DNA from: a virus
Direction: 5' to 3' (one strand)
IMG/VR virus record: IMGVR_UViG_3300020049_016021
Length of the DNA: 64,000 nt
Program-made: the position numbers and the translations under genes
In this document: positions 22,698-54,507 of the stretch, in pieces
Layout: every line of letters begins with the position of its first letter
Numbering within the stretch: position 1 is the first letter of the stretch
The notes under the pieces: model-generated
The model's input: the letters and a program-made list of their open reading frames with translations, nothing else
What the model was told of the DNA's origin: nothing
Database searches by the model: none

Positions 22698-23025
22698 CGA
22701 AGCCACAGCTACTTACACAGAAGATTTTGAGTTGTTCTGGAAAACCTTCCCAGCGTCCGATAAGTGAGATCGATTTGGAGAAACAAGAAAATTAAGGCAG
22801 AACAAAAAGGAAACCTATGCGCAATATTTGTTAGCATTAAATAGTCTGTCTGCTCCTGAACTACAGGAAGCTCTTGAAATAGAGATAAAAAATAAGAAAG
22901 AGTCTCCATCTCTTTCCAACCCTTTTAAATACATGAAAGCTTCAGTCAATTGGTTAAGAGATAAGGAATATGAAAACATAGTTTTTCCTGTATATACTTT
23001 AGAAGAAGATAATGGATTGTTATAA
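22468..23025 (+). CDS. Hypothetical protein (possible replisome-organizer-like); one in-frame TGA
   Basis: Track ORFs 22468..22767 and 22828..23025 are in the same frame joined across TGA 22765 with no other stop; TAATG overlap with the DnaB-like gene. Confidence 0.4.
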
Positions 23026-24023
23026 TGGAATATAGACACATTAGTTATGGAGTTAACTCAACCTTAGAATACATAAAGAAGAGACAGAGTGGCGAGATAA
23101 AATCCTTGAAGACTTCATTTTCTAAACTGAACTCTGTGCTTATGGGAGGCATTGACTGAGGAAGAATATTTACGATTGTGGGGCAGTCGGGCTCTGGAAA
23201 ATCTACAATCCTTGAGCAACTAAAGAAAGATTTTATTGATCTTAATAAACCTGATTTTGAGATTCTTTCCTTTGAATTTGAGATGCTAATTGAAGATCAG
23301 CTAGCTCGTTATGTGTCTTCTTTAGGAAAGTACACTATAAAGGAATTGTATTCTGCGGCTAGCCCATTGTCTAAAGAAGCATTTGATGAGGTAGAAAAAG
23401 CGTTAGAGAAGCGAAATTCTGTTCCAGTTTATTACGTTGACAATCCTGGCACACCATCCCAAATACAGGAAACTATTCTAACCTTTATATCAGAGAGGCA
23501 GTTGCTCTCAAAGAATCTAGGATTAGTAATCACAATTGACCACATACTTTTGACAAAAGGTAGAACAGGTGACAACGAGAAAGAGATTGTAGATGCTTTG
23601 ATGGATGTCTTGAATGATATAAAAAAATATTGTGCTCATATAGGCCTACGTTGCCTCATTATTAGTTTGGGCCAATTAAACAGGGATATCGAACGGGTTG
23701 AACGTGTAGAAAATCCGTTATACCATTTCCCAAATAGAAATGACATATTTGCTGCTTCGTCTGTTTACCATACGTCAGACTATGTTTTAGTGTCCCATAG
23801 ACCTATAACAGTAAATGGTATGAAGCGAACCATAAATGGTGTAGAAAAAGGTTACGGGCCCCCAAGAACTCAGTTTCCAAATGGCTGACCATTAGTATAC
23901 CCAAAGGAGCCTAGTAGACACATGGTCTATTGGCACCTCATAAAAGAAAGATTCGGAAAGCCTGGGGTAATTGCTTTGGCTGAGAATTTTGCACACTATA
24001 AACTAGAAGAAGTAGATTTATAA
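23025..24023 (+). CDS. DnaB-like replicative helicase (RecA-fold ATPase domain); two in-frame TGA
   Basis: LNSVLMGGID-W-GRIFTIVGQSGSGKST (H1/Walker A), LVITIDHILL, SLGQLNRDIERVE (DnaB H4 SQLNR); C-terminal KERFGKPGVIALAENFAHYKL after TGA 23886 resembles the DnaB C-terminus; TGA at 23157 and 23886; TAA 24021-23. Confidence 0.8.
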
Positions 24024-24025
24024 TT

Positions 24026-24991
24026 ATGAACTTAGTACAAATAACAGGACTACCTGCAACAGGTAAAACTACAGGAGCACGTTTCTTAGACCCGAAGAGC
24101 ACTTACTACATTGATGCGGATGGAAAAGGTCTCTCTTGGAAAGGATGAAAGAACGCTTATAATGCGGAAAATAAAAACTACGCGAAGACGGCCGATCCCA
24201 CAACAATATATAAAGTGGTAAAGGCTGTTAGTGAGACACGCCAAGATATCAACTGTATTGTTATAGACACTATAAATGCTATGATGACAACAGAAGAGAT
24301 GGCTATCCTAGAATCTCCTTCAAGAGATAAGTGGGCGGATCAATAGGTTAGGTCCGGTACCTGTCTAATTGCTGGAATATCCTTAGAGTTTATTATACTA
24401 CAAAGTAGCTTTGAAATAAAGGCAAGCTTGATAAGTTAAAAAATAATAGAATTGGACAATCAGCAGCGAAGCCCCGAACAGGGGAACGTTCAGAGATCAT
24501 CCCTCCGAAGGGGAGTAGGGCGACTTTTAAAGCCCGAAATGGCAGGACTTTGCAATTGTGTTTACACACTAAAAGATACTAGTATAAGCGCAGAATCTTA
24601 GCAAAGAAGATATGATCCACGCCCCATAGAAATATGGGGAATAGTGCTAGCTGTAGAAGTATGAAATCTATATAAGTTAATACGTGAAATTAAGCGTGAT
24701 GATTTTGTAGTATTCGTATTAGCGCATTGCGAGGCCTATGACGTAAATGGTATTACCCATTATCGTACTATGGTCAATGGAAAGAAGCTTTCAAAGATTA
24801 ACTTGAATGCCTTTCTATCTTATAATTTATACACAAAGATAAGTGCTGGAGCTGATGGTAATTTCAACTATGAGTTGATAACCAAAAGTGATGGTACCAA
24901 TGAAGCTCGTTCAGTTATGGACGTGTTTCCAAGCAAAATTGAAAATAATCTAGAGAATGTTCGAACCGCTGTAATTGCAGCAGAAAATTAA
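24026..24991 (+). CDS. Sak4-like (AAA_24) recombination ATPase, split by a group I intron: exon 1 24026..24340, exon 2 24647..24991; in-frame TGA at 24146 and 24662
   Basis: Walker A GLPATGKT, YIDADGKG, CIVIDTINAMM in exon 1; VVFVLAHCEAYDVNG...NLNAFLSYNLYTKISAGADGNF in exon 2; both exons in the same frame class; intron length 306 (multiple of 3). Confidence 0.7.
24341..24646 (+). ncRNA. Group I self-splicing intron (IA-type core; no homing endonuclease ORF)
   Basis: Conserved elements Q-like CAATCAGCAGCG (24457), R GTTCAGAGATCATCC (24488), S AAGATATGATCC (24607) with P7 GATCA/TGATC; P5 hairpin CCCCGAACAGGGG; P9 hairpin CCCCATA-GAAA-TATGGGG; proposed P1: exon CGGAU(24336-40) with IGS GUCCG(24357-61), U-G at the splice site; P10: exon-2 CUA with IGS UAG; intron ends with G 24646. 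Confidence 0.7.
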
Positions 24992-41700: not shown

Positions 41701-42226
41701 CTTCTCGTTTTTGAATCCTGAACCCAATATTTTTTTGTATTAGGCCTTCTATAGTAGCTGCTTTATTTGCTACTAAAACCTTATTTAATTCGGTACTGCC
41801 TGCCATATAGACAAAGTTATCAGGACCAATTACAGATTCTATTGGAGTTGTACTTAGAAGATATGAAAACATCTTACCAAAGTTGGCCGCAATACCAGTA
41901 AGAGAGATACCAGAATAGGTATTATATCTTATCTGTTCTTGAGCACTGAAGTCTGTTAATTGTCCTTGTGCTGTTAAAGCGGCATCAACTTCTTCTTGAC
42001 TTTGAAAAGCCCTAACTTCTTTGTTATTTTTTTGGCTTTCAAGAGCAGCCCAAACTTCTGATAAAGAAGGTTCTTGAGCGTATGGATCATACCGTTCTAT
42101 TAGTGTTTCAGCAAGAGGAGAAAGGGGCTCAGTACTTAAGCCCCCTAATCCATTCTCGAAAACAAACGCCCTAAATTCCTCTACAGAGAATTCTTTTTCG
42201 TTTACAATTATTTTACAATCTAGCAT
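38780..42226 (-). CDS. Large virion-associated protein (1148 aa), function unknown
   Basis: Uninterrupted 1148-aa ORF; ATG overlaps the stop of the 4095-aa gene. Confidence 0.65.
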   Translation of the reverse strand: MLDCKIIVNEKEFSVEEFRAFVFENGLGGLSTEPLSPLAETLIERYDPYAQEPSLSEVWAALESQKNNKEVRAFQSQEEVDAALTAQGQLTDFSAQEQIRYNTYSGISLTGIAANFGKMFSYLLSTTPIESVIGPDNFVYMAGSTELNKVLVANKAATIEGLIQKNIGFRIQKREAVRLKDIFKTTVNGTTISGFSRLDEKQKNVFETIDTIINLAIDNVKMQKLHILGITNNNANLFLTFLGFGFPLNTVSRIFKTPAVTALSEGGRWTSEKLRKELVKLTDELIKDDNWQNRLYELYPEQADKLIGAVQKQKGISMAFGRLSIETSTLDSIYIGKTRGIDRLISDLVVLSNLRKLIPVGEELFTHSQVYSSLRGLPNKRWKVDSVIGKIERYTKFADESNRGAELQKVLVETLAETFRESAEYKAALEESEETAEKLLKERLDKYKENPDLSDFYFAQIRATFVNKILRRSLSRKIKPSDNSAFENSTPLRLPHVLAAYRALLLYKKILENSFFVYNPIVQGFINRFLNETNIFTPFDQLEKTDEVSKELIKYLSADLDFDVNGVPFSTSVPSDTVYHTDKKSYYGKEAWGQKFISSAGKVLSIDSSNEFLNALEIITNRDKVTKLQIVADKVSDEEMLELIREDFEKLIHNKEVIPGTETSWADFARDLFKYSLISDGMYFERTGLSLVFPAEWSIGYSNAQDARLEAVIPKDDARSGINLSLLKDAFTFQMLRSRPDLVRRNDTAPMTIANVKMSWGNKKIFHGTANYADKKIHFDLKFNVPFSDNSPRFIRLYGNEVYMLKNTPGSEYTYYVQLTEPGGSPHYRFSINDIDTAFSLDKLEFNGRIVNRSNIQGSTLTEAIDGYILEKGDTVAAFNRQDASGTELTIYEVTHARQTDTEYRYTLRFKSKVPLTKTEVAPAIRSLAGSFTSSRTGTTVVVDKIKEIREKALKRNNVIVSTSEIEEGIVLPLSHITKDSTPEEVQAAVNKSITLLNEIPSSANVYVEKELLEPLTTWPNARRALARLVYKKTGFSDRYLPATLNHDTRFSEAQRRVELNIPRALGSVEVTFNEETKEHTIPSLREFSDVEVGQVVYLKENTYGYITDVTSQTFSVLMFDSKTFSAIEDGKLTMEEFTEVYKKINNC

Positions 42227-45200
42227 TTTATTTTAATTAAACCGGACTCTGCGAGTTTCTTATAGAATGAAGAATTAATATCATCAGTTAATAAGTTGGA
42301 AAGCTCTTTTTGCATTCTATGCCTATTGCGCACAACATCTTCAAATGAGATAGGAGTTAAAAGATCCTTTCTATTTTTCATCTCAAGAAGATTAGTTGCA
42401 AAGTTATGAACAATGTCATTTTTGGCAACTGTTTCAGTTGTTGCATTTAGTTTTGAAAGCTTATCATTTAAATCCTTTAATTTGGCATTCAGCTGGCTTC
42501 GTTCTGCATAGGTAGCCCCCGCCATCTGACTTGTTAACAGATTGATTTGTTGACTGATAGATACTACTTTAGACGTCAAATAGTCACGCAATTTTGCTCC
42601 TTCAATAGTGATAGGTTTTCCATTTAGGTAACCATAGGCTTCCCCTACTGGAGTTACAAGATCAGGATTATAAACATGGGAAGGATCAACGCTACTTAAA
42701 ATAGTATTTAAATCTAGCGCTTCCTTCATATCATTGTAGTCTTTTCTAATAACAAACAAACTGTCTACGTCATAGTCAGAACCATGGTAGTATACTATAA
42801 GAGAAGGGGCGATTATAATGTTTCCTTGAGAAGCCGCAGACTTAGGATAAAAACCAACTACCTTCATTGGTAATAATGAGTGATAGTTAGTAGTAGGAAT
42901 CCTAAAACCAACTAAGCCATTAGAGAGCCCAAGAACATCACCAACAGTCATATAAGCAGCATACTCTTCAGGTAAGATTACTTCGCAGTAACCCTCTGAG
43001 TCGCGCCACTTTAGATTACGCATTTCTTTCGAACCGTCTGGATTAGTAATTTCGACTGGTCCAAGATCCGCTTGTAAAACTAACTTTGAGCCTTTAAATC
43101 TGAATCCTGTTGTTGCGGCTGTTATCATGGAACCTATACTAGAAACTACACGATCAGCTATTAACGGGAGATTGAAAGAAGCTTTTTGTTTTTTGGATTC
43201 TGTTTTTAGAATTTCATAAACATCCTTTGCTCCATCAAGACCGTCTAGGTTTTCAATTAACTTTGCCCTTAATAAGTTTTCAGAAGCAGCTGTTAAAGTG
43301 CCCTTGCTAGTTAGCCTTAAATCTCTTGAGACTTGCCTAACACCATTATCTATGATTGTAGCACTTGCTAAGTGTAGATCATAAATTTCATGTGTATTCT
43401 CTCCGTTTGTGTCCTGCATAGCGGTAGCCTGTGAAGGGGCTGCTACGCTTGTTTCTACACTGTGGGCTGGGTTCAACTGGAAACGTAGATTCTCATTGTT
43501 TAATGTAATGAAAGATCCTTCTGATATACTATTCGTATGTATTCGACCATCCTCTCCAAGTTTGGCTGGACTAGCAGGTCTACCAATCTTTACACCAGAT
43601 TTGAAAACCATCTGATCTGCTTTCGCATTACGCATGGCCTCTCTATAGGTGGCAAGATGAGGAAAGGCAGCAACAAGTTCGTCAGTCAAGACTTTAACAG
43701 AATATTTTACGGCTGTTGGAACACCCTTTTCTATGGAGAAATATACGGGCTTTAATACTGTATCAACAAGAGCATCAGCTCCATAAGCAGAAGCAATCTT
43801 TTCATAGAACTCTGGTAGCATAAATCCTTCAGCATCTGAAGCTTCGTAGTCAGCTCCGTAGGAAGCATTGATAGCAGCTTCTAGGTCTTCTGGAATCTCT
43901 CTTACTAAGTCTTCGACAACCAATACTTTGGATTCTTTAGGGAGCCCGTGTACAGCATCTATTAGCATAGTGTCCCCAGTAGCAGTTACTATCTGAATAC
44001 GTTTTGTTTGTTCTTCCTTGTTAGCGAAGAAAGCCTCGTCACCATAAATAATTTGAGATAAAGAATACTGGTTTATTATGAAATTAAAGTAGAAACTTTC
44101 TATTAGTTTTTCAACTATTTGATTTCTTTTTTCAAAATAATTATTTAATTCTTCATCACTCATGTTACGTTTCCATTCGGGAGCAGTTCCAATATTCAGT
44201 ATGCTAGCCGCAGCTTTTAAATCCTTGTCGGAAATAGGTACCTTAGCATTTTTCTCTGGTAATCTGATGAAAGCAGGCAATAGTTCTGCTACCTTAGTAG
44301 TTACGTGTTTCTTTACTGCCTCAATAGCTTCAGTAGTTGAAAGATCTTTTGTTGAACCAGTCAGTCCCGCAAATCTCCAAGATTGGTAATTCTTAGCATA
44401 TGTTGGATTATTTCCAAGTAACTTTGGATCAGGTCTATTTTTTTGAGCGTTGATAATAGCTAGTAAAGCTTTATCTATCTGTGCTCCTTTTAATACTGAA
44501 ACCTCTACATTAGCAATGGTCGTTCTATTTGATGGAATAGGCAGAGCTTGATAGTATTTTCCTCTTGAAGCCGCTACTCTAGAAATAAAATTACCTACTA
44601 TGTGGCGCTTTCTAAAGTCATTTAAATTTTCTTTGCGAAGGAATTTAGCGAAGCGCTCATTCCCTTTTTGTTTCCATGAATCATGTTCATTATACGAGAA
44701 CAGCGTGTTTAGACCGTTAAAGAAAATATTAGAAGATAGGAATGGATCGGTGCTTTTCACTTTTCCATTTTGTACAGAAAAAGTATCAAAACTCTTGGCT
44801 GGTCGTCCCTGTAAAGCATTTTCGAGACTTGTCAGTAGATCTGTCTGGTAGGAAGAATCAATCCATCCAAAAGCTTTTTTACCGTCGCCTCTTGTATAGG
44901 AGTGAGTTTCACCTAAAGCAAAGTGGGAATTCAACATATCTGTTAATTCATCAATAAAGCTTCCCTCATTTTCTAACAGAGTTTCACCACTTCTAGCTTC
45001 TTGATATTCTTCTTCAGTTTCGTAGTCTGTCTTCTCTGTTGCATAACCAGCCTGCAATTTTGGAGCAACAAGTTTTAAACGTTCAAAAAATAACTCAACA
45101 CTCCTAGCAGAAGCATCTGTTATTCTTTTATGGACATCTATAAGATTAAGAAACTCCTTTATAAGGCTTCTTTTCTCTTCTATTGTTTTTACATTTGTAT

Positions 45201-48200
45201 TATAAAGTTTGTCCATGAATTCCTGAGGAAAGAGTTTCTTTTCCTTGGCCTCAAGACGGGTTTCTACATATTTATTAAAGAAGAAGCGGAGATTAGCTTC
45301 ATGGGCTCTTTTACCTCCACCTGCTTTTATTATGTAGTTTATTACTTTATAAATACCAAAATCCCAACGCTCAATGAAGGCTAATGGCTTACTTTTTCTC
45401 AAGGATGCTACAGCTGCCAGTAAGCTCTTTAAAAAGTCCATATCTTCAAACAAGTAGTATGCTTGTCCTACTGAACTATATGGGACTCGTACCTTATTAG
45501 CTAAGAGCTCAATGAAGCTGTGTGTAGTGCTTTGTTGATGTTCAACACCATACTTTGTAGGAAATTGCTTTGCTGTATGTAAGGTTACTTCTTCAACAGA
45601 CGAACCATCTAAAGAGTAAATCGCATACACCCCCTTAAAGGTTGCGTCTTTTCTAAAAGAAATATTCTTTAGTCTGTTCGGAGCATCTAACTTTGTCTCT
45701 ATGTCGTGAAACAAATTCAACATAGCGTTTCCTGTAGCCCAACGGATATTAGGTTTACTTCTTATTCCTTGGAATTCTTTAAAGTTGTGTTTCAAAGCTT
45801 CCAATGCCCCTCTTATAGAATGCTTAGGAATTGAAGCAATACGTTCTAGCAAAAATGAATAGGCCCTGTTTAAGTCTGCATAATCTTCTTTACCGTTTTT
45901 CCAGTACTTTATTGTGATTAACCTTTGCTTTATTGCGCCCGTTAATTTTACGTGAGGATCAACAAGCATAGAGTCAAATGTCTCGGCTCGTAGGGCATCA
46001 AGTTCAGAAGTTAGCGACTCTGGTGTGTCAACATTTTCTTCGTTACCTTCTTCTACTTCTGCTGGAGCGCCTTCTAAGAGAGCGGCTAGTTTAGCTTCTT
46101 TCTCTTCTATATCCTTTAATTTAATTGCATCCAGTACTTTCAGAACAGCTCCTCTAGTTTGTGTTTGTCCAAAGTAGTGATTTACAAGCTTTCTCCAAAG
46201 ACCTCCATTTTTTAAGATCTTTGCGAGCGTGGCTCTAAGCTGAGCAGCTTCTTCCTGCGTATAAGTAATGCCTGCTGAAAACTTACTAGGACTTTCTACA
46301 AAATCCTTCATTCGTTCTACTACAGACTCAAGAATTTCACTTTGACTCAATACTCGAGTAGTCGGCCGATTCCTTTGAATTTCAGAATAAGCAGCTAAAA
46401 TAAATGTTTTTGCTTGATGATATTCTGTGTAAGAATTAAATTCTGAGCGCAGATTCATCGCAGCTCTTTCAACTAATGGTGTCTCTCGTTGCTTAAAATA
46501 GAAAGCCTTGTTATCTATCAGATTAAAGAAATTCTCTACGCTGCTTAGATTATTATAGGTAAATCCTAAAAGACGTTTCAACTTATTCCAAAGAATCTCA
46601 AAGATATTAGATGTCTTTGTTTTGACAAATGTCTCAAAACTCTCGGCTAATTTCTCTTCTAATTCTACAACCCCTAATTCCCCATAAACCTCACGAGCAA
46701 GATTTAAAGCCTGCACCTGTTCAGCTGGAGTAAGGTATTCCCAAAATACTTTGTGAAATAATTCGTGTCTTACAACTCTAGAAGAGATCTTACCATTTGC
46801 TAATCTAGCAAAGCTAGTTATCCCGTTTTTATAGAGCCCCCAGACAGTTTCCCCTCTAGCATTGACAAGTTGCCCGTATTCCAATATTTGATATAATTCT
46901 CCTTTCTTGTTAGAGAAGAGGCTTTTCAAGAATTGAATAGGTGTTTTTCCTGTGAATCTACCCACGTAATTATCAACATCTACGTCGGAAAACTCTTCAC
47001 CAAGATTTTCACCTAAGAATCTCTTTGAACGTTCAGTATGAATTGCTTCCAATAACTTTGTGACCCCTTCCATGGGATCATCAGGATTTATCGAAAGCAC
47101 CTTATCTCTATATTCGAAATTAGATTGGAATACATCTTCGAACTCTTCAGCTGGTGAATCAGATAATGCCACCAACTTCTCTAAGTAATCCGAGAATCCA
47201 GTAGGAACATCTAAACTTTCAGCATCAAAAGCCTGCACAGTTGGTAAGGCAGAACCTTCTCTTGCTTTTTTTCTAAGAGCAGAGCTAATAGGTATTAACT
47301 GGTCAAAGATGTCGTAGAGATCTTCTAGCTCTGTATAGGTTATACGCTCGGTTAATCCAGCCTGCTGTGCAAGTGTGTTGTAGTGATTTATAACTTCTTG
47401 TAATTTTTGTCTTACAATAGCTTCGTCAGCTTCAAACTCATAAATCAAGCTTTCTAAGTCATTATCAAATCTAGCTCTATCAAACTTCTTACCTGAATAA
47501 TAGTCCGTCCGTGCAAAGTCTGCAATCGTAAATACCTCTTGTTCATTAATAGCATTCAAAATTCTCGTAAGAACAGAAGCTCTAATGAAGTCTCTAGAAG
47601 CAACGTCGCCTTGGTTTCGTCCTGTATCTTTGACATCTAAGGATGTTTCAAGATCTGCTTTAATATTATCGAGAGCAGTGCTTTCTTGTTTTGCGACGTC
47701 CTTTAGGGCAGTGATTATAGCAACATTTTGTGTTACATATAATTGGCTTTGAGCGTGAGCCTCTCTATATTTTTCGACAGCTTCAATTAGCGAAATAGCT
47801 CCCAAACCGCTAACAAATTCCCCAGTAGCCTTCTGGCTAAATTCTTTTGTTATGGCTTGTTCAATAGTTTTAGTGCTTGTTTCCTTAGAAAACTCCTCAA
47901 TCCTTCTTTTCAATCGAATTAGTTCAGAGCGCTCTACTCTTTGTTGTTCTTGCTCAAGTGGACTTGTTACTCCAGCTTCTAAGGCAACATCTATGACGGT
48001 GTGGCGTACTCCTGTAAAATGTGTAGTCACCAACTCTAAGGGTAGATTCTCTAAGGCTGTCTCAGCGCTCACATCAAAACTCTTTGGTAGAGGAGTTCTC
48101 AATCCAAATCCTTCTGAAATATTACTAAAGGTGCCTGTTTTATCCTGTCCTTCTAAGAACACATCCTTTAAGTCCTCTAAGCTTATTGGAGAAAGGTGTT

Positions 48201-51200
48201 TATTTCCTGGAGTCTCTAAGAGCTCATTTATGAAATGAAATCTTGGTGTGCCGGCTTTTCCCCTTCTTACTAAAGAACCCCTATAAGCTTCTAATCGGTT
48301 TAGTAGCGCAGAGTTTATTTTTGGATTATAGGCTAATCCTTTCTTCCTAGTAAATTTAATAGGACCAAGCAAACTGATACCCTTGGTATCTTTTACGTCC
48401 TTCTCTTCATCTAATACTTTGTAGTCTCTTAGAATTATATTCTTACCATTATGTGTTGTAATTACTAAATTCTGACTACCAATGGAGTCCATTATTAGTT
48501 GAGCTTCTCCTTTATAGGATCTTCTCTTACCAGCTTCAATATTACCATGCACCAAGAAATCTAACTCGGATGCAAGCTCTAGTAGTTTCTTAGGAATCTT
48601 CTTCCCATCAACATCGGGAAACAACTTATTTAGAGCCGGCGCAGGAGATAATTTCAATGTAGCCTCCTTACCTTCAACAAGAGCCGTGTGTGTATTAGAA
48701 AGGTGTGTGATAAGCTCGTGAAAAGGAAAATACTTCTCCCCAGCAATATCCACCATGCCCCCTAGTTTTAATGTAGAGTAAGCTCCTGGTAATTTACTAC
48801 TTGCCAACGCTTTCTCAAATTGTTCTAGTGTCTTTATGAATTTTACAAGGGGCTCTATATTTGTGGTCTTTGTATTTAAGACTGTTGGAGCGAGACGAAT
48901 GAACTGTGTCTTTACAACCTTACCAGTTGTAGTTCGTAGTCCGTGTATCATCATATAAGGAGGACCTATTTGAGGTCTATCCTCTATTGAGGTAGCATCC
49001 GGAAACCATCTATCAAGATCCTTTGCAGACTTAAACACGCCTATAGTGACATGCTTTGCAGGATTGGCTAGTATTTCTGAATAGTTCTCTAATTGCTCAT
49101 CACCACTAGGACCCCACATCTCATTCAAATACTTTCTCAGAAGAGGGATATCTGTTATCTTTCCACTATTAGCATCTCTTGCAAGAGAGGAAAAATCTTC
49201 CGTTGGCTCTTCACCGTACAGGTATTGGAGAGGTGCACTGCTGGCTTGGTTTATGATCTCTATACTATCAAGACCAGGAGACCTAAATACACCTGGAGTA
49301 GCTGTAGAAGAAAGTGTTGAGGGTTGGAGTGTTTGTAGGGAAATCCCTAAATTTTCCTCTAACCTCCTATTTTCAGATTCTCCTAATACTGCTATTCTTT
49401 CAAAAAGATCACCTCCAAGTTTTCGTAGAATAACGTATCTACTTGCTGGTGTACCATCCTTTTTTGGAGTACGGTCTAAGGCGATTTGAAGCACTTCTCC
49501 AGGAACTAGTGGGTTAATGCCGTCTCTACCTTGGTCATGCTTAAATGTTGCATTAGTTGGATGAAGAAGTCTATGGGCTCCTTGCACAACGGGCTGCTGT
49601 GGTGGAGTATCTATAGGAATATCTTCTTCCCAAGTTATATCTTCTTCCTCTTCTTCTTTCTCCTTTTTAGGCTTACTTTCTGGTACTGGAGCTTCTTCAG
49701 AAGGAACAGCAACATCAGTTAATGCTTCTAAAATCTTTATGCGTTCATCTAAAAGCTTTAAGACTTCTTCAGCTGTTCTTGTAGTTTTTGGTTGTGCTGC
49801 TATAGTTGGGTCAACTATGTGGGAAGCCTTTGGGACATTAGACAGATGTGCATATTTTCTTGCTCTTGATAAAGCTGTATATACCCACTGATTATATACT
49901 TCTACGTTCTCAAAATTTACCTGATCCCCTTTAGTAATGTCCACATAAACCTCGTCTCTAACAATACCTGCTGCTTCCGGTACCATCAGAACAGTAGCAT
50001 CCGGAAGAGAAGCTTGATATTGAGCTTGCTTTGCTTTACTTCCAACCAGTATAATCCTTGTCCTAGCCGGATTGCTTCTTACAGAACGTTTGTAACTATC
50101 TACAATAGAGTTGCCTGTTTCTGCAAATGAGCCCTCTATCTCTTCAGCTGATAAGGAGATATCCTTTGAAGAAGATGAATTATGTTCAACTACTTCTTCC
50201 TTACTTTTGTATTGATTCTGAAGATCTATTAACTCATCTAAGTCTGCTCTGTAAGTAGCCGATAAGGGTGATATTTGTAGCAAGTTCTCTACTAAAGGTA
50301 ATCCCGTAACAGCTGTTATTGGCCTTCTTCCTGTCTCAAATGCCTCTTTTACCGCTTTATCCCCATTATGATACTCAGTTTCAGTAGCTGAAAAGTTATC
50401 ATAAAATTCAAGATCTAGTGCTGGTCTACCGACGTTTCCTGGTGTTACTTGGTTTGGGTCATATAGAAACAAATACTTAACCTGTGCCTCTTCGTTTAGA
50501 GTATTGTACTTAGCAACAGCAGAAGCAAACTTGTTTATGGTTTCAATAGTAAGACCCCCAGCTTCGTCTATGATGATGGTTCTCACCTTACCTAGAGTAT
50601 CGGACTCTAGTTTAGCTATTATTTGTTCAATAGTGTTGGTGTTGTCAGGATTACCAAGACTTTCTGCAATGTTCTCGGCAGCTAGTTGATATGGAGCCGC
50701 TGAAATAATTTCCTCATCCTTTAGGCCTAGCACGTGCTTCAACAACTTAGATACTACTAAGGATTTTCCTGCTCCCGCTGGAGCTCTTAAAGCTGCGCCA
50801 GCAGAATATAATTTTCCTGAATTTTTTGGGGTAGAGAAGAAAGTAGCCAATTCCCTAGCAACCCTGATTTGTGCTGAAGAAGGTAGTGGAAGTAGCGGAT
50901 TGTTCTTTATGAACTTCCTGATCTTTGAAAGAAATTCAACATGGTTAAATCCACCTTCAGCGGCCAATTGAATATGTTGCAGAGCTGTTAACTGCGCCTG
51001 TAGTTTTACAAGAGCAGCTAGTTCTTCCTTCGTTGCGTTACCAACATAGTTACCAAGAGCAGTATTAAAATCAACAATATCATAGTTTTTATTAAAATTG
51101 ACTAAGGGATCTATATTCTGCTTTGGTAGAGGATTTAATTTCTCCTTAGCCTCTAATATACGTAGTACTTCTAAAAATCCGCGACTAGGATTGTCTAATA

Positions 51201-54200
51201 TTCTAACAAGAGATTCATCAGTTAATCTTGGCCCAAGTCCTGTTGTCCAAAGCAACTTCATAGAACGTAAGAATTCTTCAGCCTTTTTCCTATAAGCCTC
51301 TTGAATTTCAATAGCTTTCTTAGGTTCTTGAGCTAGTGTATCTAATACCGCCATTGAAGTTAATTCTGGATCTAGAACATCTTCAGTAAGGATTGGCGTT
51401 AGTTCATTGGTTGCCTCAGCGTAGAATAAGTTCTCCTTTGTATTTTTTAAGTCCTTGTTCTTAAGATTCTCCTCAACCAAAGTTTTTATAAGTCTTAGTT
51501 TTGGAAGTAGGATAGCAGCATTGCTTTTTATAAGTTTACCATTGTTACCAAGGGAATCAAGATTTATTTTCTCTAGTGCTTCAAGATGAGCTATTTGTTT
51601 CTTTACTGCCTCTAGTGCTGTGTAGTCTTCTGATATCTTTTCACCATCAAATTCACTTACCTCAACAATCCGTTCAGCCGCTTGAGTTATTTCTTTTGCA
51701 GCGAGCTCCTTAGCTTCAATATTGTCTACGAAATCAGGACTTGTTTTTCTAGCGTCAAGAGTATCGAAAGTTTTCTGTTGGTCCTTTATCAAAGGTGCCG
51801 CAGAACTCTGTAACGCTTTTATATTATCATATTCATCAAGCAAAGCTAAAATGCTATCAGGTAGTTCATCTGCTTCCATTTCTAGAAGCTCTTCAACAGA
51901 GATACCATTTGGTAGTTTCGCTAAAATAGCTTCTTCTTCCTTTTGCAGAGTTTCAGCCACTTCTGCTATCTCATTCTTCAATAAGTCTATCTCATCTCCG
52001 TACATAGAAAGATCTTCTTCCTGAAGGGTTTGAGTTATTTTATTTAAAGATTCGATTTTATCAGCTAGATCCTTTCCTGTATTTGACAGCCTTACTGTTG
52101 CCGCTAATACGTCTGATTGAAAGTAAGTCTTTGCAACCTTTAACTTCTTTTCAGTTTCAATAGCTGTGGCCCTTTTCTCTAGGAAACTATTAACAGTTTT
52201 GTCAGTAGCTCCTTCCCCCAAAGATAAAGTCTTTAGCCCTTCTCGTACTGTTCGAAGTCCACTAAAATCTTTATTAGATACAGCGTCTTTATAGGCTTTA
52301 AAACCTGTGCTAGGTTTTATTAGCTTCGTATAAACTTGTCCCAGTTCTTCCAAAGCTGTTTCAGCTTCTTTTTGCTGGGTTAGAAGATTAGCAAGCTGTT
52401 GCTCATTGAGGGCATCCTTTGTTTTAAACTTACCAAGAGCATCTATATCACCAGCGTTGAAAGCAGTGGCTATTTCTGAAGCCCTAATTGGGTCCTGTTG
52501 CCACACTGCATTTATTTCTTTACCAATTTCCTCGGATAAAGCTTTTAGATTTACAATCCTACCACCAACATTAGCTGTGTAAGCTTTTAAACCTCTTAAT
52601 GTAGTCTCGTCTGTAGGCGATAGAAGTGAATTATTTACTTGTAAAAAGTTTTGCTCTAATCTTTCAATATGTGCTTTCCAACCATCTACCTGTTCTTGTA
52701 GTTCCTTCGCTGTTGAAAATCCCATTGCCTGGGCCTGTTCTTCTGTGGCTTGCTGTAAAGTTTCTAACTTCTGTATAAGCTGTTCTGTAGTGCCAGAGTT
52801 GAAGGCAGTTTGGGCCAGATTGTTTAACTTTTCTAGCTGGAAATATTTTAGTTTTAATGGATTAGGATTTGGTCTGCCAGCTTCTAAATCAAATAAATTA
52901 TCTAATTCTCCTTGATAGGTGATGTCAGCGGCCAGTGCGGAAGCTTTTGCCATATCCTTTTTAGGTAGGCCATCATCTCCCAATACTATAGAAGAAGCTA
53001 TTTCATAGTTACCATCCTGATCTGCTCCATACTGAGCAGCCAATCCTTGGTACTGTGTTTCATCAATCTTCTGCACCTGTCCATCTATCTCATTAAAATA
53101 CTCTTGTGTTCCGTCTTCTTTTGGCTTGGCTACCAGCTTTCCTTTTTTTGCAGGCGTACGCTCTATAACATCAGTTGAGAAGAAATCAGTATAAGCCGAA
53201 TTCAACCTTGTCTCGGCGTCTTTTTGACGTTGACGGTAATTTCTAGATTGAGAGACCGATCCTACACCAATTAGATCCGCAACAATAGATTGGCCACCAC
53301 CTATAATAGCTCCAAGACCAGCGGCCTTTACTCTGTCTGGATCAGCGAAATCCATTTCTAAAACATCTTTAATATAAGCTTTAGAAGCGTCTAGAAAAGA
53401 ACTATGGTTATGGGTAGCATCATTTGCTTTTTGAATTGAGTACTGAAGATTTTCTTCTAAGCCCTCTCCAAAAGTTTGAGTGATAATTGACTTTGCAAAA
53501 TTAGCATAGGAGTTGCCTTGGTCATAAAGTAACTTTTCAACAGCAGTCAAAGGAGCCTTGGCCTGAACAACCTTACTCGAAGATTTTGCAAGTCCTAGTC
53601 CTAAGTCATTCATCCTAGTAGAAGTAACACCAGGTTTGAATATAGGTTTCACAAGTTTTGTGAAGAAGTTGTTTGTAACTCCAGCCGTAGCCATGTTCAA
53701 CCAAAAAACATTGGTTAAAGACTGATTAGCTTTATCAGCTATTTGTTCGTCAGTTAATTCATTTTCTCCACGCTGTCTTGCGACCTCCAGTTGCCTCTTT
53801 ACTTGATCCCTAGAATCAATTCCCTCAAGAGCAGATTCATTTACAGTTAAAAATGTGTTTAATGTTAGCTCGTCTATATTACTAGCTATCTTGGCCAGCT
53901 TCTGACTACCCGAATTAAATAGGACATCTCTAAATGACTTTCCTTTTGCTAAAGCATTGATAACCCTTGAGCCTGTAGCTGCTTTTGCCAACAAGCCTGT
54001 TAATCCAAAGCTCTGAGTTAAAAAAGAAACTGTTTCAACATTAGCCGTAGCTAGTTGCCCAGGAGAAGATAGTTGATCCCAAAAGCTTTTATCATGGAAG
54101 TTTGCCTCTTGAAAGTGCGGAAAATGCTCAGTACCCCAGGTACTGATTGCCTTCCCCATATCCAAGAATGGGTTATGTTCAAATCCAGAAGCAAACTCTC

Positions 54201-54507
54201 CACCAGAAAGAGCTTTAGCACTTCCTTCTACAAGCCCTGTAAAAGCGCCTACTATTGTTGGTGCACCAGACAATGTTTTTACTCCTAAGTCCCCTAAGAA
54301 GTTTGCAATTGCTGTTGGATAGCCTTGATTATTATATCGGACATTGGCTTGATTCTCATAATCCAAGAGGCCCTTATCGTAGTAATTCCCCAGCAAGCTA
54401 CCAAGATAGGTGTCAGCGCTACCTATTGGTTGTCCGCCAAACTCATTACGAGGTCTGGCATAGGCTTTGTGTTTGACCGGTGAAATTAATTGACTTATAT
54501 CTGGCAT
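42220..54507 (-). CDS. Giant virion RNA polymerase-like protein (4095 aa) with an internal SF1 helicase domain and a C-terminal beta-prime-like DPBB catalytic motif
   Basis: Helicase: Walker A RAPAGAGKS (about 50765-50790), Walker B TIIIDEAGG (about 50560), motif VI VYTALSRARKYAHL (about 49850). RNAP: FRIPTTNYHSL (about 42885-42910; compare beta-prime NRAPTLHRL) followed by YYHGSDYDVDSLF (DxDxD at about 42765-42780; compare NADFDGD). Zero in-frame TGA; TAG stop. Confidence 0.8.
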   Translation of the reverse strand: MPDISQLISPVKHKAYARPRNEFGGQPIGSADTYLGSLLGNYYDKGLLDYENQANVRYNNQGYPTAIANFLGDLGVKTLSGAPTIVGAFTGLVEGSAKALSGGEFASGFEHNPFLDMGKAISTWGTEHFPHFQEANFHDKSFWDQLSSPGQLATANVETVSFLTQSFGLTGLLAKAATGSRVINALAKGKSFRDVLFNSGSQKLAKIASNIDELTLNTFLTVNESALEGIDSRDQVKRQLEVARQRGENELTDEQIADKANQSLTNVFWLNMATAGVTNNFFTKLVKPIFKPGVTSTRMNDLGLGLAKSSSKVVQAKAPLTAVEKLLYDQGNSYANFAKSIITQTFGEGLEENLQYSIQKANDATHNHSSFLDASKAYIKDVLEMDFADPDRVKAAGLGAIIGGGQSIVADLIGVGSVSQSRNYRQRQKDAETRLNSAYTDFFSTDVIERTPAKKGKLVAKPKEDGTQEYFNEIDGQVQKIDETQYQGLAAQYGADQDGNYEIASSIVLGDDGLPKKDMAKASALAADITYQGELDNLFDLEAGRPNPNPLKLKYFQLEKLNNLAQTAFNSGTTEQLIQKLETLQQATEEQAQAMGFSTAKELQEQVDGWKAHIERLEQNFLQVNNSLLSPTDETTLRGLKAYTANVGGRIVNLKALSEEIGKEINAVWQQDPIRASEIATAFNAGDIDALGKFKTKDALNEQQLANLLTQQKEAETALEELGQVYTKLIKPSTGFKAYKDAVSNKDFSGLRTVREGLKTLSLGEGATDKTVNSFLEKRATAIETEKKLKVAKTYFQSDVLAATVRLSNTGKDLADKIESLNKITQTLQEEDLSMYGDEIDLLKNEIAEVAETLQKEEEAILAKLPNGISVEELLEMEADELPDSILALLDEYDNIKALQSSAAPLIKDQQKTFDTLDARKTSPDFVDNIEAKELAAKEITQAAERIVEVSEFDGEKISEDYTALEAVKKQIAHLEALEKINLDSLGNNGKLIKSNAAILLPKLRLIKTLVEENLKNKDLKNTKENLFYAEATNELTPILTEDVLDPELTSMAVLDTLAQEPKKAIEIQEAYRKKAEEFLRSMKLLWTTGLGPRLTDESLVRILDNPSRGFLEVLRILEAKEKLNPLPKQNIDPLVNFNKNYDIVDFNTALGNYVGNATKEELAALVKLQAQLTALQHIQLAAEGGFNHVEFLSKIRKFIKNNPLLPLPSSAQIRVARELATFFSTPKNSGKLYSAGAALRAPAGAGKSLVVSKLLKHVLGLKDEEIISAAPYQLAAENIAESLGNPDNTNTIEQIIAKLESDTLGKVRTIIIDEAGGLTIETINKFASAVAKYNTLNEEAQVKYLFLYDPNQVTPGNVGRPALDLEFYDNFSATETEYHNGDKAVKEAFETGRRPITAVTGLPLVENLLQISPLSATYRADLDELIDLQNQYKSKEEVVEHNSSSSKDISLSAEEIEGSFAETGNSIVDSYKRSVRSNPARTRIILVGSKAKQAQYQASLPDATVLMVPEAAGIVRDEVYVDITKGDQVNFENVEVYNQWVYTALSRARKYAHLSNVPKASHIVDPTIAAQPKTTRTAEEVLKLLDERIKILEALTDVAVPSEEAPVPESKPKKEKEEEEEDITWEEDIPIDTPPQQPVVQGAHRLLHPTNATFKHDQGRDGINPLVPGEVLQIALDRTPKKDGTPASRYVILRKLGGDLFERIAVLGESENRRLEENLGISLQTLQPSTLSSTATPGVFRSPGLDSIEIINQASSAPLQYLYGEEPTEDFSSLARDANSGKITDIPLLRKYLNEMWGPSGDEQLENYSEILANPAKHVTIGVFKSAKDLDRWFPDATSIEDRPQIGPPYMMIHGLRTTTGKVVKTQFIRLAPTVLNTKTTNIEPLVKFIKTLEQFEKALASSKLPGAYSTLKLGGMVDIAGEKYFPFHELITHLSNTHTALVEGKEATLKLSPAPALNKLFPDVDGKKIPKKLLELASELDFLVHGNIEAGKRRSYKGEAQLIMDSIGSQNLVITTHNGKNIILRDYKVLDEEKDVKDTKGISLLGPIKFTRKKGLAYNPKINSALLNRLEAYRGSLVRRGKAGTPRFHFINELLETPGNKHLSPISLEDLKDVFLEGQDKTGTFSNISEGFGLRTPLPKSFDVSAETALENLPLELVTTHFTGVRHTVIDVALEAGVTSPLEQEQQRVERSELIRLKRRIEEFSKETSTKTIEQAITKEFSQKATGEFVSGLGAISLIEAVEKYREAHAQSQLYVTQNVAIITALKDVAKQESTALDNIKADLETSLDVKDTGRNQGDVASRDFIRASVLTRILNAINEQEVFTIADFARTDYYSGKKFDRARFDNDLESLIYEFEADEAIVRQKLQEVINHYNTLAQQAGLTERITYTELEDLYDIFDQLIPISSALRKKAREGSALPTVQAFDAESLDVPTGFSDYLEKLVALSDSPAEEFEDVFQSNFEYRDKVLSINPDDPMEGVTKLLEAIHTERSKRFLGENLGEEFSDVDVDNYVGRFTGKTPIQFLKSLFSNKKGELYQILEYGQLVNARGETVWGLYKNGITSFARLANGKISSRVVRHELFHKVFWEYLTPAEQVQALNLAREVYGELGVVELEEKLAESFETFVKTKTSNIFEILWNKLKRLLGFTYNNLSSVENFFNLIDNKAFYFKQRETPLVERAAMNLRSEFNSYTEYHQAKTFILAAYSEIQRNRPTTRVLSQSEILESVVERMKDFVESPSKFSAGITYTQEEAAQLRATLAKILKNGGLWRKLVNHYFGQTQTRGAVLKVLDAIKLKDIEEKEAKLAALLEGAPAEVEEGNEENVDTPESLTSELDALRAETFDSMLVDPHVKLTGAIKQRLITIKYWKNGKEDYADLNRAYSFLLERIASIPKHSIRGALEALKHNFKEFQGIRSKPNIRWATGNAMLNLFHDIETKLDAPNRLKNISFRKDATFKGVYAIYSLDGSSVEEVTLHTAKQFPTKYGVEHQQSTTHSFIELLANKVRVPYSSVGQAYYLFEDMDFLKSLLAAVASLRKSKPLAFIERWDFGIYKVINYIIKAGGGKRAHEANLRFFFNKYVETRLEAKEKKLFPQEFMDKLYNTNVKTIEEKRSLIKEFLNLIDVHKRITDASARSVELFFERLKLVAPKLQAGYATEKTDYETEEEYQEARSGETLLENEGSFIDELTDMLNSHFALGETHSYTRGDGKKAFGWIDSSYQTDLLTSLENALQGRPAKSFDTFSVQNGKVKSTDPFLSSNIFFNGLNTLFSYNEHDSWKQKGNERFAKFLRKENLNDFRKRHIVGNFISRVAASRGKYYQALPIPSNRTTIANVEVSVLKGAQIDKALLAIINAQKNRPDPKLLGNNPTYAKNYQSWRFAGLTGSTKDLSTTEAIEAVKKHVTTKVAELLPAFIRLPEKNAKVPISDKDLKAAASILNIGTAPEWKRNMSDEELNNYFEKRNQIVEKLIESFYFNFIINQYSLSQIIYGDEAFFANKEEQTKRIQIVTATGDTMLIDAVHGLPKESKVLVVEDLVREIPEDLEAAINASYGADYEASDAEGFMLPEFYEKIASAYGADALVDTVLKPVYFSIEKGVPTAVKYSVKVLTDELVAAFPHLATYREAMRNAKADQMVFKSGVKIGRPASPAKLGEDGRIHTNSISEGSFITLNNENLRFQLNPAHSVETSVAAPSQATAMQDTNGENTHEIYDLHLASATIIDNGVRQVSRDLRLTSKGTLTAASENLLRAKLIENLDGLDGAKDVYEILKTESKKQKASFNLPLIADRVVSSIGSMITAATTGFRFKGSKLVLQADLGPVEITNPDGSKEMRNLKWRDSEGYCEVILPEEYAAYMTVGDVLGLSNGLVGFRIPTTNYHSLLPMKVVGFYPKSAASQGNIIIAPSLIVYYHGSDYDVDSLFVIRKDYNDMKEALDLNTILSSVDPSHVYNPDLVTPVGEAYGYLNGKPITIEGAKLRDYLTSKVVSISQQINLLTSQMAGATYAERSQLNAKLKDLNDKLSKLNATTETVAKNDIVHNFATNLLEMKNRKDLLTPISFEDVVRNRHRMQKELSNLLTDDINSSFYKKLAESGLIKIKC

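Follow-up and report, generated by a model that had tools for sequence, protein, structure and literature searches.

Group I introns that interrupt conserved phage genes, often accompanied by GIY-YIG or HNH endonucleases, are a textbook class of element (PMC3984707), and a high density of them has been described in crAss-like phages by Yutin et al. (2021, Nat Commun; PMC7886860), whose list of intron-containing core replication genes includes the AAA ATPase gene ATP_43b. The introns of that study were detected via endonuclease protein domains in human-gut genomes of the Delta and Zeta groups (PMC7886860). The present analysis concerns IMG/VR virus record IMGVR_UViG_3300020049_016021, a stretch of 64,000 nucleotides (nt) which is called the window below and supplies the coordinates (+ strand unless otherwise indicated). 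In this window, a 306-nt insertion at 24341-24646 interrupts a Sak4-like AAA_24 ATPase gene, and it is very probably a true group I intron, excised from the transcript, in a phage that reads TGA as a sense codon. The insertion contains no intact open reading frame (ORF).

The introns of Yutin et al. and the window intron share the class of element and the class of host gene, an AAA-domain ATPase gene beside DnaB, and in both cases introns are combined with stop-codon recoding. The AAA ATPase of the Delta-group phage cr53_1 is a PF13479 (AAA_24) protein like that of the window, and one short gene separates it from the upstream DnaB gene. However, the window intron has no intact ORF, in contrast to introns found through their endonuclease domains, and would thus be missed by surveys based on such domains, and the window phage is nearer to phages of the Fpv1/phi14:2 type. 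Pairwise BLASTP found no significant similarity between the window Sak4-like protein and the AAA ATPase of cr53_1 (E 0.16), so the link to ATP_43b is one of shared Pfam family and position and not of close similarity. The likeness is drawn at gene-class level. The initial annotation of this DNA had regarded a group I intron in a Sak4 gene of a crAss-like phage as undescribed, which is overstated at gene-class level in view of the ATP_43b introns listed by Yutin et al. (2021; PMC7886860). A literature search for introns in Sak4 returned nothing relevant. What is new here is modest, namely the lineage and insertion site, the ORF-less copy and a documented allele series, and the current understanding of group I introns is unchanged by these findings.

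The T4 td intron, a member of subgroup IA2 in a conserved DNA-metabolism gene, encodes the GIY-YIG endonuclease I-TevI. It shares with the intron family of the window the hairpins P7.1 and P7.2 and mobility via an intron-encoded GIY-YIG enzyme. The T4 endonuclease carries a separate C-terminal DNA-binding module, and the relatives of the window intron show GIY-YIG together with a weak NUMOD1 match. The td endonuclease ORF lies in the P6 loop, whereas here the ORF begins at the 3' strand of P3 and occupies P8. The window copy further differs from td in the loss of its ORF, the absence of P2 and a long P5a/P5b extension.

When both strands of the window were scanned against all 4227 Rfam families, the sole match at gathering level was to RF00028 (Intron_gpI) at 24311-24639, with 64.4 bits against a gathering score of 50, an E value of 4.8e-14 and coverage of model positions 1-253 of 253, while a permissive scan (E<=1) yielded no second intron in the window and nothing else at E<=0.3. 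The Rfam comparison proposed in the initial annotation thus returned a group I match, and the intron placed there at 24341-24646 is also borne out by covariation, by the gap-free alignment of the spliced protein and by compensatory changes in P1 and P10. The insertion equals 102 codons, so that the reading frame is kept, and contains three in-frame stop codons (TAG 24344-46, TAA 24437-39 and TAG 24599-601), where a single TAG and TAA had been reported; both of these are present, but the total is one higher. The splice sites are supported after U24340 (5') and after G24646 (3'), as read from the sequence and its relatives. A one-base slide is possible at the DNA level, as C begins both the intron and exon 2, but 24341-24646 was chosen because no other choice lets U precede the 5' splice site and G close the intron, a rule obeyed by all same-site relatives. 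The predicted junction of the ligated exons is GGGCGGAT followed by CTAGCTGT, and the corresponding predicted 34-mer consists of AGATAAGTGGGCGGAT joined to CTAGCTGTAGAAGTATGA.

Joining exon 1 (24026-24340; codons 1-105) to exon 2 (24647-24991; codons 106-219 and the stop codon TAA at 24989-91) restores an ORF of 219 amino acids (aa) with TGA read as Trp. This spliced ORF matches PF13479 AAA_24 (34.7 bits, cut-off 27) and phrog_2872 'Sak4-like ssDNA annealing protein' (1.8e-38), and contains the Walker A P-loop GLPATGKT (residues 8-15, encoded by exon 1). The host gene is identified by these matches as a Sak4-like/AAA_24 ATPase gene, where 'Sak4-like' serves as an annotation label. Among 5.8 billion proteins searched, there were many uninterrupted homologues of 219-220 aa with 72-77% identity, with which the junction SRDKWAD-LAVEVW aligns residue for residue and without a gap, in agreement with the junction originally predicted. 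The junction sits in the best-conserved motif of the family, where D101, W103, D105, L106 and A107 are each conserved at 90% or more, and this alignment, also proposed in the initial annotation, revealed no insertion domain at the junction in any of the aligned homologues. If the standard code is applied, TGA codons interrupt the flanking frame at 24146-48 in exon 1 and at 24662-64 in exon 2, and at both positions the homologues have Trp (SWKGW and VEVW). Neither TAG nor TAA occurs in frame in the 23 long ORFs examined, so the three stop codons within the insertion are real and not subject to read-through.

The sequence elements of a group I core were read directly from the DNA as Q/P4' CAATCAGCAGCG (24457-68), R GTTCAGAGATCATCC (24488-502), S AAGATATGATCC (24607-18), the internal guide sequence (IGS) UAG-GUCCG (24349-56) and the terminal guanosine, or omega-G, which is the last intron nucleotide (24646) and ends the intron in all same-site relatives as well. 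Together with P7 GATCA/TGATC and the P9 GAAA hairpin, these elements all lie where the initial annotation had located them. A structure-blind MAFFT alignment of six related introns was passed to RNAalifold, which recovered P1, P3, P4, P5 with P5a/P5b, P6, P7.1, P7.2, P8 and P9, 31 of the 65 pairs being compensatory, and the minimum-free-energy (MFE) fold of the single sequence gave the same helices (z = -3.1). A further MAFFT alignment, of 39 compact, non-redundant relatives found on different viral contigs, served to test the structure together with the P7 pseudoknot, the structure-blind alignment being preferred to a covariance model as adequate and less biased. In this alignment, 87.7% of the cells form standard pairs as given, against 34.8-40.3% when the partners are slid by 1-3 columns, while the cells changed on both sides number 508 against 100-165 and the covariation score is 0.498 against at most 0.115; none of 500 column shuffles matched the observed values. 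All 44 columns that are invariant in the 39 relatives are intact in the window, where every core helix is fully paired.

The 5' splice site is marked by the wobble pair U24340-G24352 within P1 (24336-24356), which is formed by exon CGGAU (24336-40) and C24341 with G24351 and GUCCG (24352-56) and was found by both RNAalifold and the MFE fold. The P1 helix with U-G at the splice site had been proposed earlier, and it is upheld by a compensatory change in L001, L014 and L015 (exon AGGAU with IGS GUCCU), where L-numbers designate loci on viral and metagenome contigs, L014-L018 being from IMG/VR and L001, L304 and L305 from ENA/JGI. The same rule can be read from related introns of other genes, such as L146 (CGUGGAU/GUUCACG) and L086 (GAAGGGU/GCUCUUC). 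The UAG/CUA pairing suggested for P10 forms the core of a longer helix between the 5' part of the IGS (GUUAG, 24347-51) and exon 2 (CUAGC, 24647-51), which is deduced from the sequence and its relatives, and matching variants occur as GCUAG/UUAGC in L001 and L014, AUGAG/CUUG in L018 and GUUAG/CUAGC in L305.

P2 is absent, P1 and P3 being separated by GUA only. P3 pairs CCUGUC (24360-24365) with GGCAGG (24541-46), is 98.6% paired in the 39 sequences and shows double changes in five of its six pairs. The P4-P5 domain (24370-24465) comprises the invariant P4 (24370-75/24460-65) and P5 (UCC 24380-82/GGA 24454-56), which carries an extension of about 70 nt made up of P5a (24389-96/24443-50; all eight pairs covary, 89.6% paired), the P5b hairpin with a GAAA-type loop (24403-11/24420-29; 90% paired) and an A-rich strand (24430-42). 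P6 (24466-24489) consists of 24466-68/24487-89 and 24472-75/24481-84, with 95-100% pairing and covariation, and includes the hairpin CCCC-GAACA-GGGG (24472-84), which had been taken for P5 but is part of P6 because it lies after the P4 3' strand. In P7, G24493, the bulged A24494 and GAUCA (24495-99) face UGAUCC (24613-18), with GAUCA/UGAUC (24613-17) as the core pairing; the helix is 100% paired with three covarying pairs, forms a pseudoknot with P3 and contains the predicted guanosine-binding pair G24495-C24617 beside the bulged nucleotide. Across the family, P7 occurs as GACUA/UAGUC, GACCA/UGGUC and GAUCA/UGAUC without a single mismatched R/S combination, the 3' motif having been picked without a requirement for complementarity. 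Two hairpins lie between P7 and the P3 3' strand (24504-24535), P7.1 (24504-06/24511-13) and P7.2 (24518-21/24532-35), the latter covarying in close relatives (CG/AU) and being 88.6% paired at its base in the 39 sequences. P8 (24548-24606) pairs CUUUGC (24548-53) with GCAAAG (24601-06), and its compensatory variants in same-site relatives are CUUUGC/GCAAAG, CUUUGU/ACAAAG and CUUCG/CGAAG, while P9 (24622-24639, CCCCAUA-GAAA-UAUGGGG) is 94.8% paired and covaries in all seven pairs. The intron thus combines a gathering-level score, core helices with compensation, the P7 pseudoknot, a U-G pair at the 5' site, and omega-G with P10, as group I introns do. Hairpins P7.1 and P7.2 between the P7 5' and P3 3' strands define subgroup IA (classes summarised in PMC3984707). 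With P7.1 at 24504-13 and P7.2 at 24518-35, the window intron can be classified from its predicted fold as subgroup-IA-like; it also has the P5a/P5b extension and lacks P2. The P7.1/P7.2 criterion is said to go back to Michel and Westhof in 1990.

Viral and metagenome contigs were searched for relatives with the protein and with intron motifs. Those at the same site are uncultured and have an identical insertion point, about 90% core identity and the same P1/P10 logic, and their introns lie at the same codon, after GAU of Asp105, in L001, L014-L018, L304 and L305. Three types of allele accompany the window copy. The intron-less type is found in L003 (92% protein identity, on an 89-kilobase (kb) contig), whose site reads AAATGGGCGGAT directly followed by TTAGCCGTGGAC, and in L004-L010. 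The second type, in L014-L018, L304 and L305, carries an intron with a full GIY-YIG ORF of 208-218 codons, the intron being 870 nt long as measured in L014, L015 and L018, and the third is an ORF-less intron of 261 nt in L001/L002. At one phosphodiester bond there is hence an insertion of 261, 306 or 870 nt or nothing at all, with the window copy intermediate between the full-length introns and L001. The GIY-YIG ORFs of the relatives match PF01541 with 31.6 and 26.8 bits (cut-off 22.6) and NUMOD1 weakly; their ATG abuts the P3 3' strand, and they fill P8.

The statement in the initial annotation that there is no homing-endonuclease ORF is correct for an intact gene, which is absent from the window but present in L014-L018, L304 and L305; the P8 hairpin of the window does, however, contain a GIY-YIG remnant, identified by alignment to the relatives, which consists of an ATG, 20 codons (MAGLCNCVYTLKDTSISAES) and a TAG at 24539-24601. 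This remnant is homologous only in its first 14 or so codons (MAGLCNCVYTLKDT, to about 24575-80) and at its 3' end (from about 24594), and about 560 nt of the endonuclease gene are deleted relative to the 208-218-codon gene. The deletion in L001 is different and larger, so the endonuclease gene has been lost at least twice. The window scores 64.4 bits against RF00028 compared with 58.5 bits for L001, while the endonuclease-bearing relatives fall below the Rfam threshold.

The exons of the intron-less L005 and the intron-bearing L014 are nearly identical. Between the window and L018, L014 and L001, intron-core identity is 89-91%, compared with 65-75% for the flanking exons, a contrast that is to be expected from transfer of the intron among phages which had diverged beforehand. 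The site is thus polymorphic for the presence of the intron, whose sequence is better conserved than the DNA around it, as in homing, and the GIY-YIG relatives, the intron-less alleles and the high core identity together indicate a mobile intron at a late stage of the homing cycle which has spread horizontally. An empty site, a full GIY-YIG intron and two independent deletions at one site in diverged phages illustrate that cycle, and the allele series would be a convenient system for studying, in a recoded phage, what the endonuclease targets and how active the ribozyme is. When the metagenome collection was scanned throughout with a 29-base pattern specific to the lineage, four contigs only were retrieved, two of them previously known, which makes the same-site lineage a rare one there. 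L305 (ERZ650304 NODE-29, 100.6 kb) has ACG at the position of the endonuclease ATG (GAAACGGCAGG) and an ORF that otherwise looks intact where it was read, which could represent early endonuclease decay or an alternative start. The endonuclease ORF of L014/L015 (L014 2327-2983) contains two in-frame TGA codons where L018 has TGG at the equivalent Trp positions; the mobile element thus shares the recoding of its host phage.

Standard group I chemistry (reviewed: PMC3984707) applied to this anatomy gives the following predicted pathway. In the pre-mRNA, exon-1 CGGAU would pair with the guide GUCCG to form P1 with its U24340-G24352 wobble, and free exogenous guanosine, bound at the P7 pair G24495-C24617, would attack after U24340. 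Omega-G24646 would then take the guanosine site while exon-2 CUAGC pairs with GUUAG as P10, and the 3'-OH of exon 1 would attack after G24646, which ligates the exons to an mRNA encoding the uninterrupted 219-aa protein (SRDKWAD-LAVEVW). The anatomy for each of these steps is present and conserved, the chemistry itself being predicted. The ancestor was very probably a mobile intron with a GIY-YIG homing endonuclease gene in the P8 loop, and the deletion of about 560 nt has left an intron that is unable to home alone, yet must splice for Sak4 to be made. Such an intron would persist because its precise loss is rare and splicing keeps it harmless, and it might still be mobilised in a co-infection in which a relative supplies the endonuclease.

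Several points weigh against removal at the RNA level as the explanation. That splicing takes place, and does so unaided by protein, is deduced from sequence, and the remaining doubt concerns efficient, protein-free splicing by an endonuclease-less copy. P2 is absent, P1 is short (6 bp) and P10, the weakest element, has merely 4-5 bp including wobbles. The Rfam alignment places P1 inside exon 1, and the P1 given here is our own pairing with one compensatory change in one lineage. The P8 and P7.1 columns are only 38-45% paired in the 39-sequence alignment, which is attributed, though not by proof, to variable length and to gaps introduced by MAFFT. There are only about six independent same-site relatives, which are moreover close (about 90%), so that covariation events among them are few. 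One might suppose that the intron has decayed, splicing having been lost along with the endonuclease, and that the Sak4-like gene is a pseudogene or yields only a 106-aa N-terminal fragment. A degraded endonuclease gene is indeed the stage of the homing cycle that precedes intron loss, and the short P1, the missing P2 and the indirect nature of the case for splicing fit this view. It is nevertheless very unlikely, as the 44 invariant columns are intact and the core helices fully paired, the Rfam score exceeds that of the ORF-less L001, both exons retain an open frame and conserved residues, and a replication/recombination gene that is conserved in all relatives is hardly dispensable.

Splicing in vivo might instead depend on a protein cofactor or maturase of phage or host, in which case the intron would not be autonomously self-splicing. 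Protein assistance in vivo is required by many group I introns (reviewed in PMC3984707), and the absence of P2 and the A/U-rich peripheral P5a/P5b and P8 remnant, which may fold weakly, would be in line with such a need. On the other hand, self-splicing in vitro is the general behaviour of phage group I introns of like architecture (reviewed in PMC3984707), the P5 extension, comprising a GNRA-type loop and an A-rich strand, is strongly conserved, covaries and resembles an internal stabiliser of the RNA more than a protein-binding substitute, and the ORF-less introns of the window, L001 and L146 persist without any intron-encoded protein, which makes dependence on a cofactor unlikely. The insertion could also be no intron at all, but an intergenic spacer between the half genes of a split Sak4 or an in-frame insertion read through its stops, given that its length is a multiple of three, which keeps the frame, and that the genome does recode one stop, TGA. 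This is contradicted by the Rfam E value and the covarying RNA structure, by exon 2, which has no start codon at its beginning, by the absence of in-frame TAG and TAA from the 23 long ORFs, by the homologues, which lack an insertion domain at the site, and by the length variation among relatives at the same phosphodiester bond, and its probability is very small. A genuine group I intron removed from the Sak4-like transcript thus remains the preferred explanation. For annotation this matters in that, without the intron call, a core replication/recombination gene appears as two truncated fragments.

Beyond the same site, introns with a related core occur in other genes, among them L146, in another AAA+ ATPase gene at the Walker B motif, and L086 and L094, which contain GIY-YIG ORFs; the ORF-less copies are those of the window, L001 and L146. 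The P4-P5a/P5b-P4' architecture (AATTGCTGGAA, 60-90 nt, GGACAATCAGCAGC) is found in at least 120 IMG/VR contigs (IMG/VR loci L187-L303), which include jumbo phages of 200-350 kb and GVMAG bins, while the P3-P7 core (intron nt 26-180) matches 160 cultured-phage records at 71-75% identity, mostly unannotated. Such unannotated similar cores, in other host genes and with other endonuclease families, are found in Vibrio phage ICP1 and in Staphylococcus, Bacillus, Enterococcus and Serratia jumbo phages, and in ICP1 the core match is flanked by an HNH homing endonuclease gene on one side and a C-terminal gene fragment on the other. By these sequence matches the window intron belongs to a very common phage intron family. 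Searches by endonuclease domain miss its ORF-less members and the Rfam threshold misses the endonuclease-bearing ones, so that each kind of survey loses half of the family. It has also been considered that the intron represents a distinct, unclassified lineage, very widespread in environmental phages, whose splicing may gate Sak4 expression alongside TGA recoding. Such a lineage would be characterised by the lack of P2, the conserved P5a/P5b with GNRA loop and A-rich strand, and P7.1/P7.2, and Sak4 could then be made only with a suppressor tRNA as well as a folded ribozyme, but this reading is quite unlikely. In three contigs (L169 4135-5111, L107 2227-3205 and L091 1714-2799), two or three Rfam-level group I introns lie within about 1 kb, which suggests a heavily invaded gene.

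The window phage has no close published genome, since 20-30 kb of its sequence found no match by megablast among 50,697 phage records. The gene directly preceding exon 1 (23025-24023) encodes a DnaB-like helicase with best matches in Crassvirales (36-39%, e.g. cr53_1 of Suoliviridae), and the Sak4-like protein shares 26-29% with those of Cellulophaga phage phi14:2 and cr108_1 ('Sak4-like'). The virion protein and genome layout, however, match Flavobacterium phage Fpv1, which is placed outside Crassvirales by the International Committee on Taxonomy of Viruses; in both genomes, the giant ORFs for virion proteins and the replication module occupy opposite strands. Hallmark structural genes of Crassvirales (MCP, TerL, portal and the gene 74/75 set) were neither found nor tested for in the window. 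The label crAss-like, used in the initial annotation, therefore agrees with DnaB but not with the virion protein and layout, and is loosely supported and acceptable in a broad sense only. In Fpv1, the nearest cultured relative by layout, the Sak4-like gene is uninterrupted, the genome has no group I match at the Rfam gathering score, and the 8.5 kb around Sak4 and the split polymerase contain nothing at E<=0.01; weak BLAST seeds occur in that region.

Reading TGA as sense gives longer ORFs across the window, and in-frame TGA was seen in PolA, two helicases, DnaB, the Sak4-like gene and an exonuclease. In the + strand replication module (genes 5300-34300), PolA has four in-frame TGA codons, and helicase, DnaB, Sak4 and exonuclease have two each. 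By contrast, the six giant minus-strand ORFs (34257-63371) contain no TGA in 9,648 codons and use TGG 67 times. Recoding is thus restricted to the replication genes and spares the virion block, the reverse of the crAss-like pattern in which late genes are recoded. No tRNA, and hence no suppressor tRNA, was found within the window. Among the database proteins P0013, P0016-P0018 and P0020-P0024, many are truncated gene calls of 134-172 aa that start at an internal Met, possibly caused by TGA recoding under standard-code gene calling, and P0024 has its start within the intron and continues across the 3' splice site. On the minus strand, a 4095-aa ORF (42220-54507) has only a short Dda-like helicase stretch according to PHROGs (residues 1240-1357), and its first 3000 aa have no tblastn match in the 50,697 phage records; a 4401-aa 'virion structural protein' occupies the equivalent position in Fpv1. 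Fpv1 also contains, in an unannotated gap at about 84381-84795 (L309 39381-39795, minus strand), an Rfam match to transfer-messenger RNA (RF00023) with 58.2 bits against a threshold of 47.

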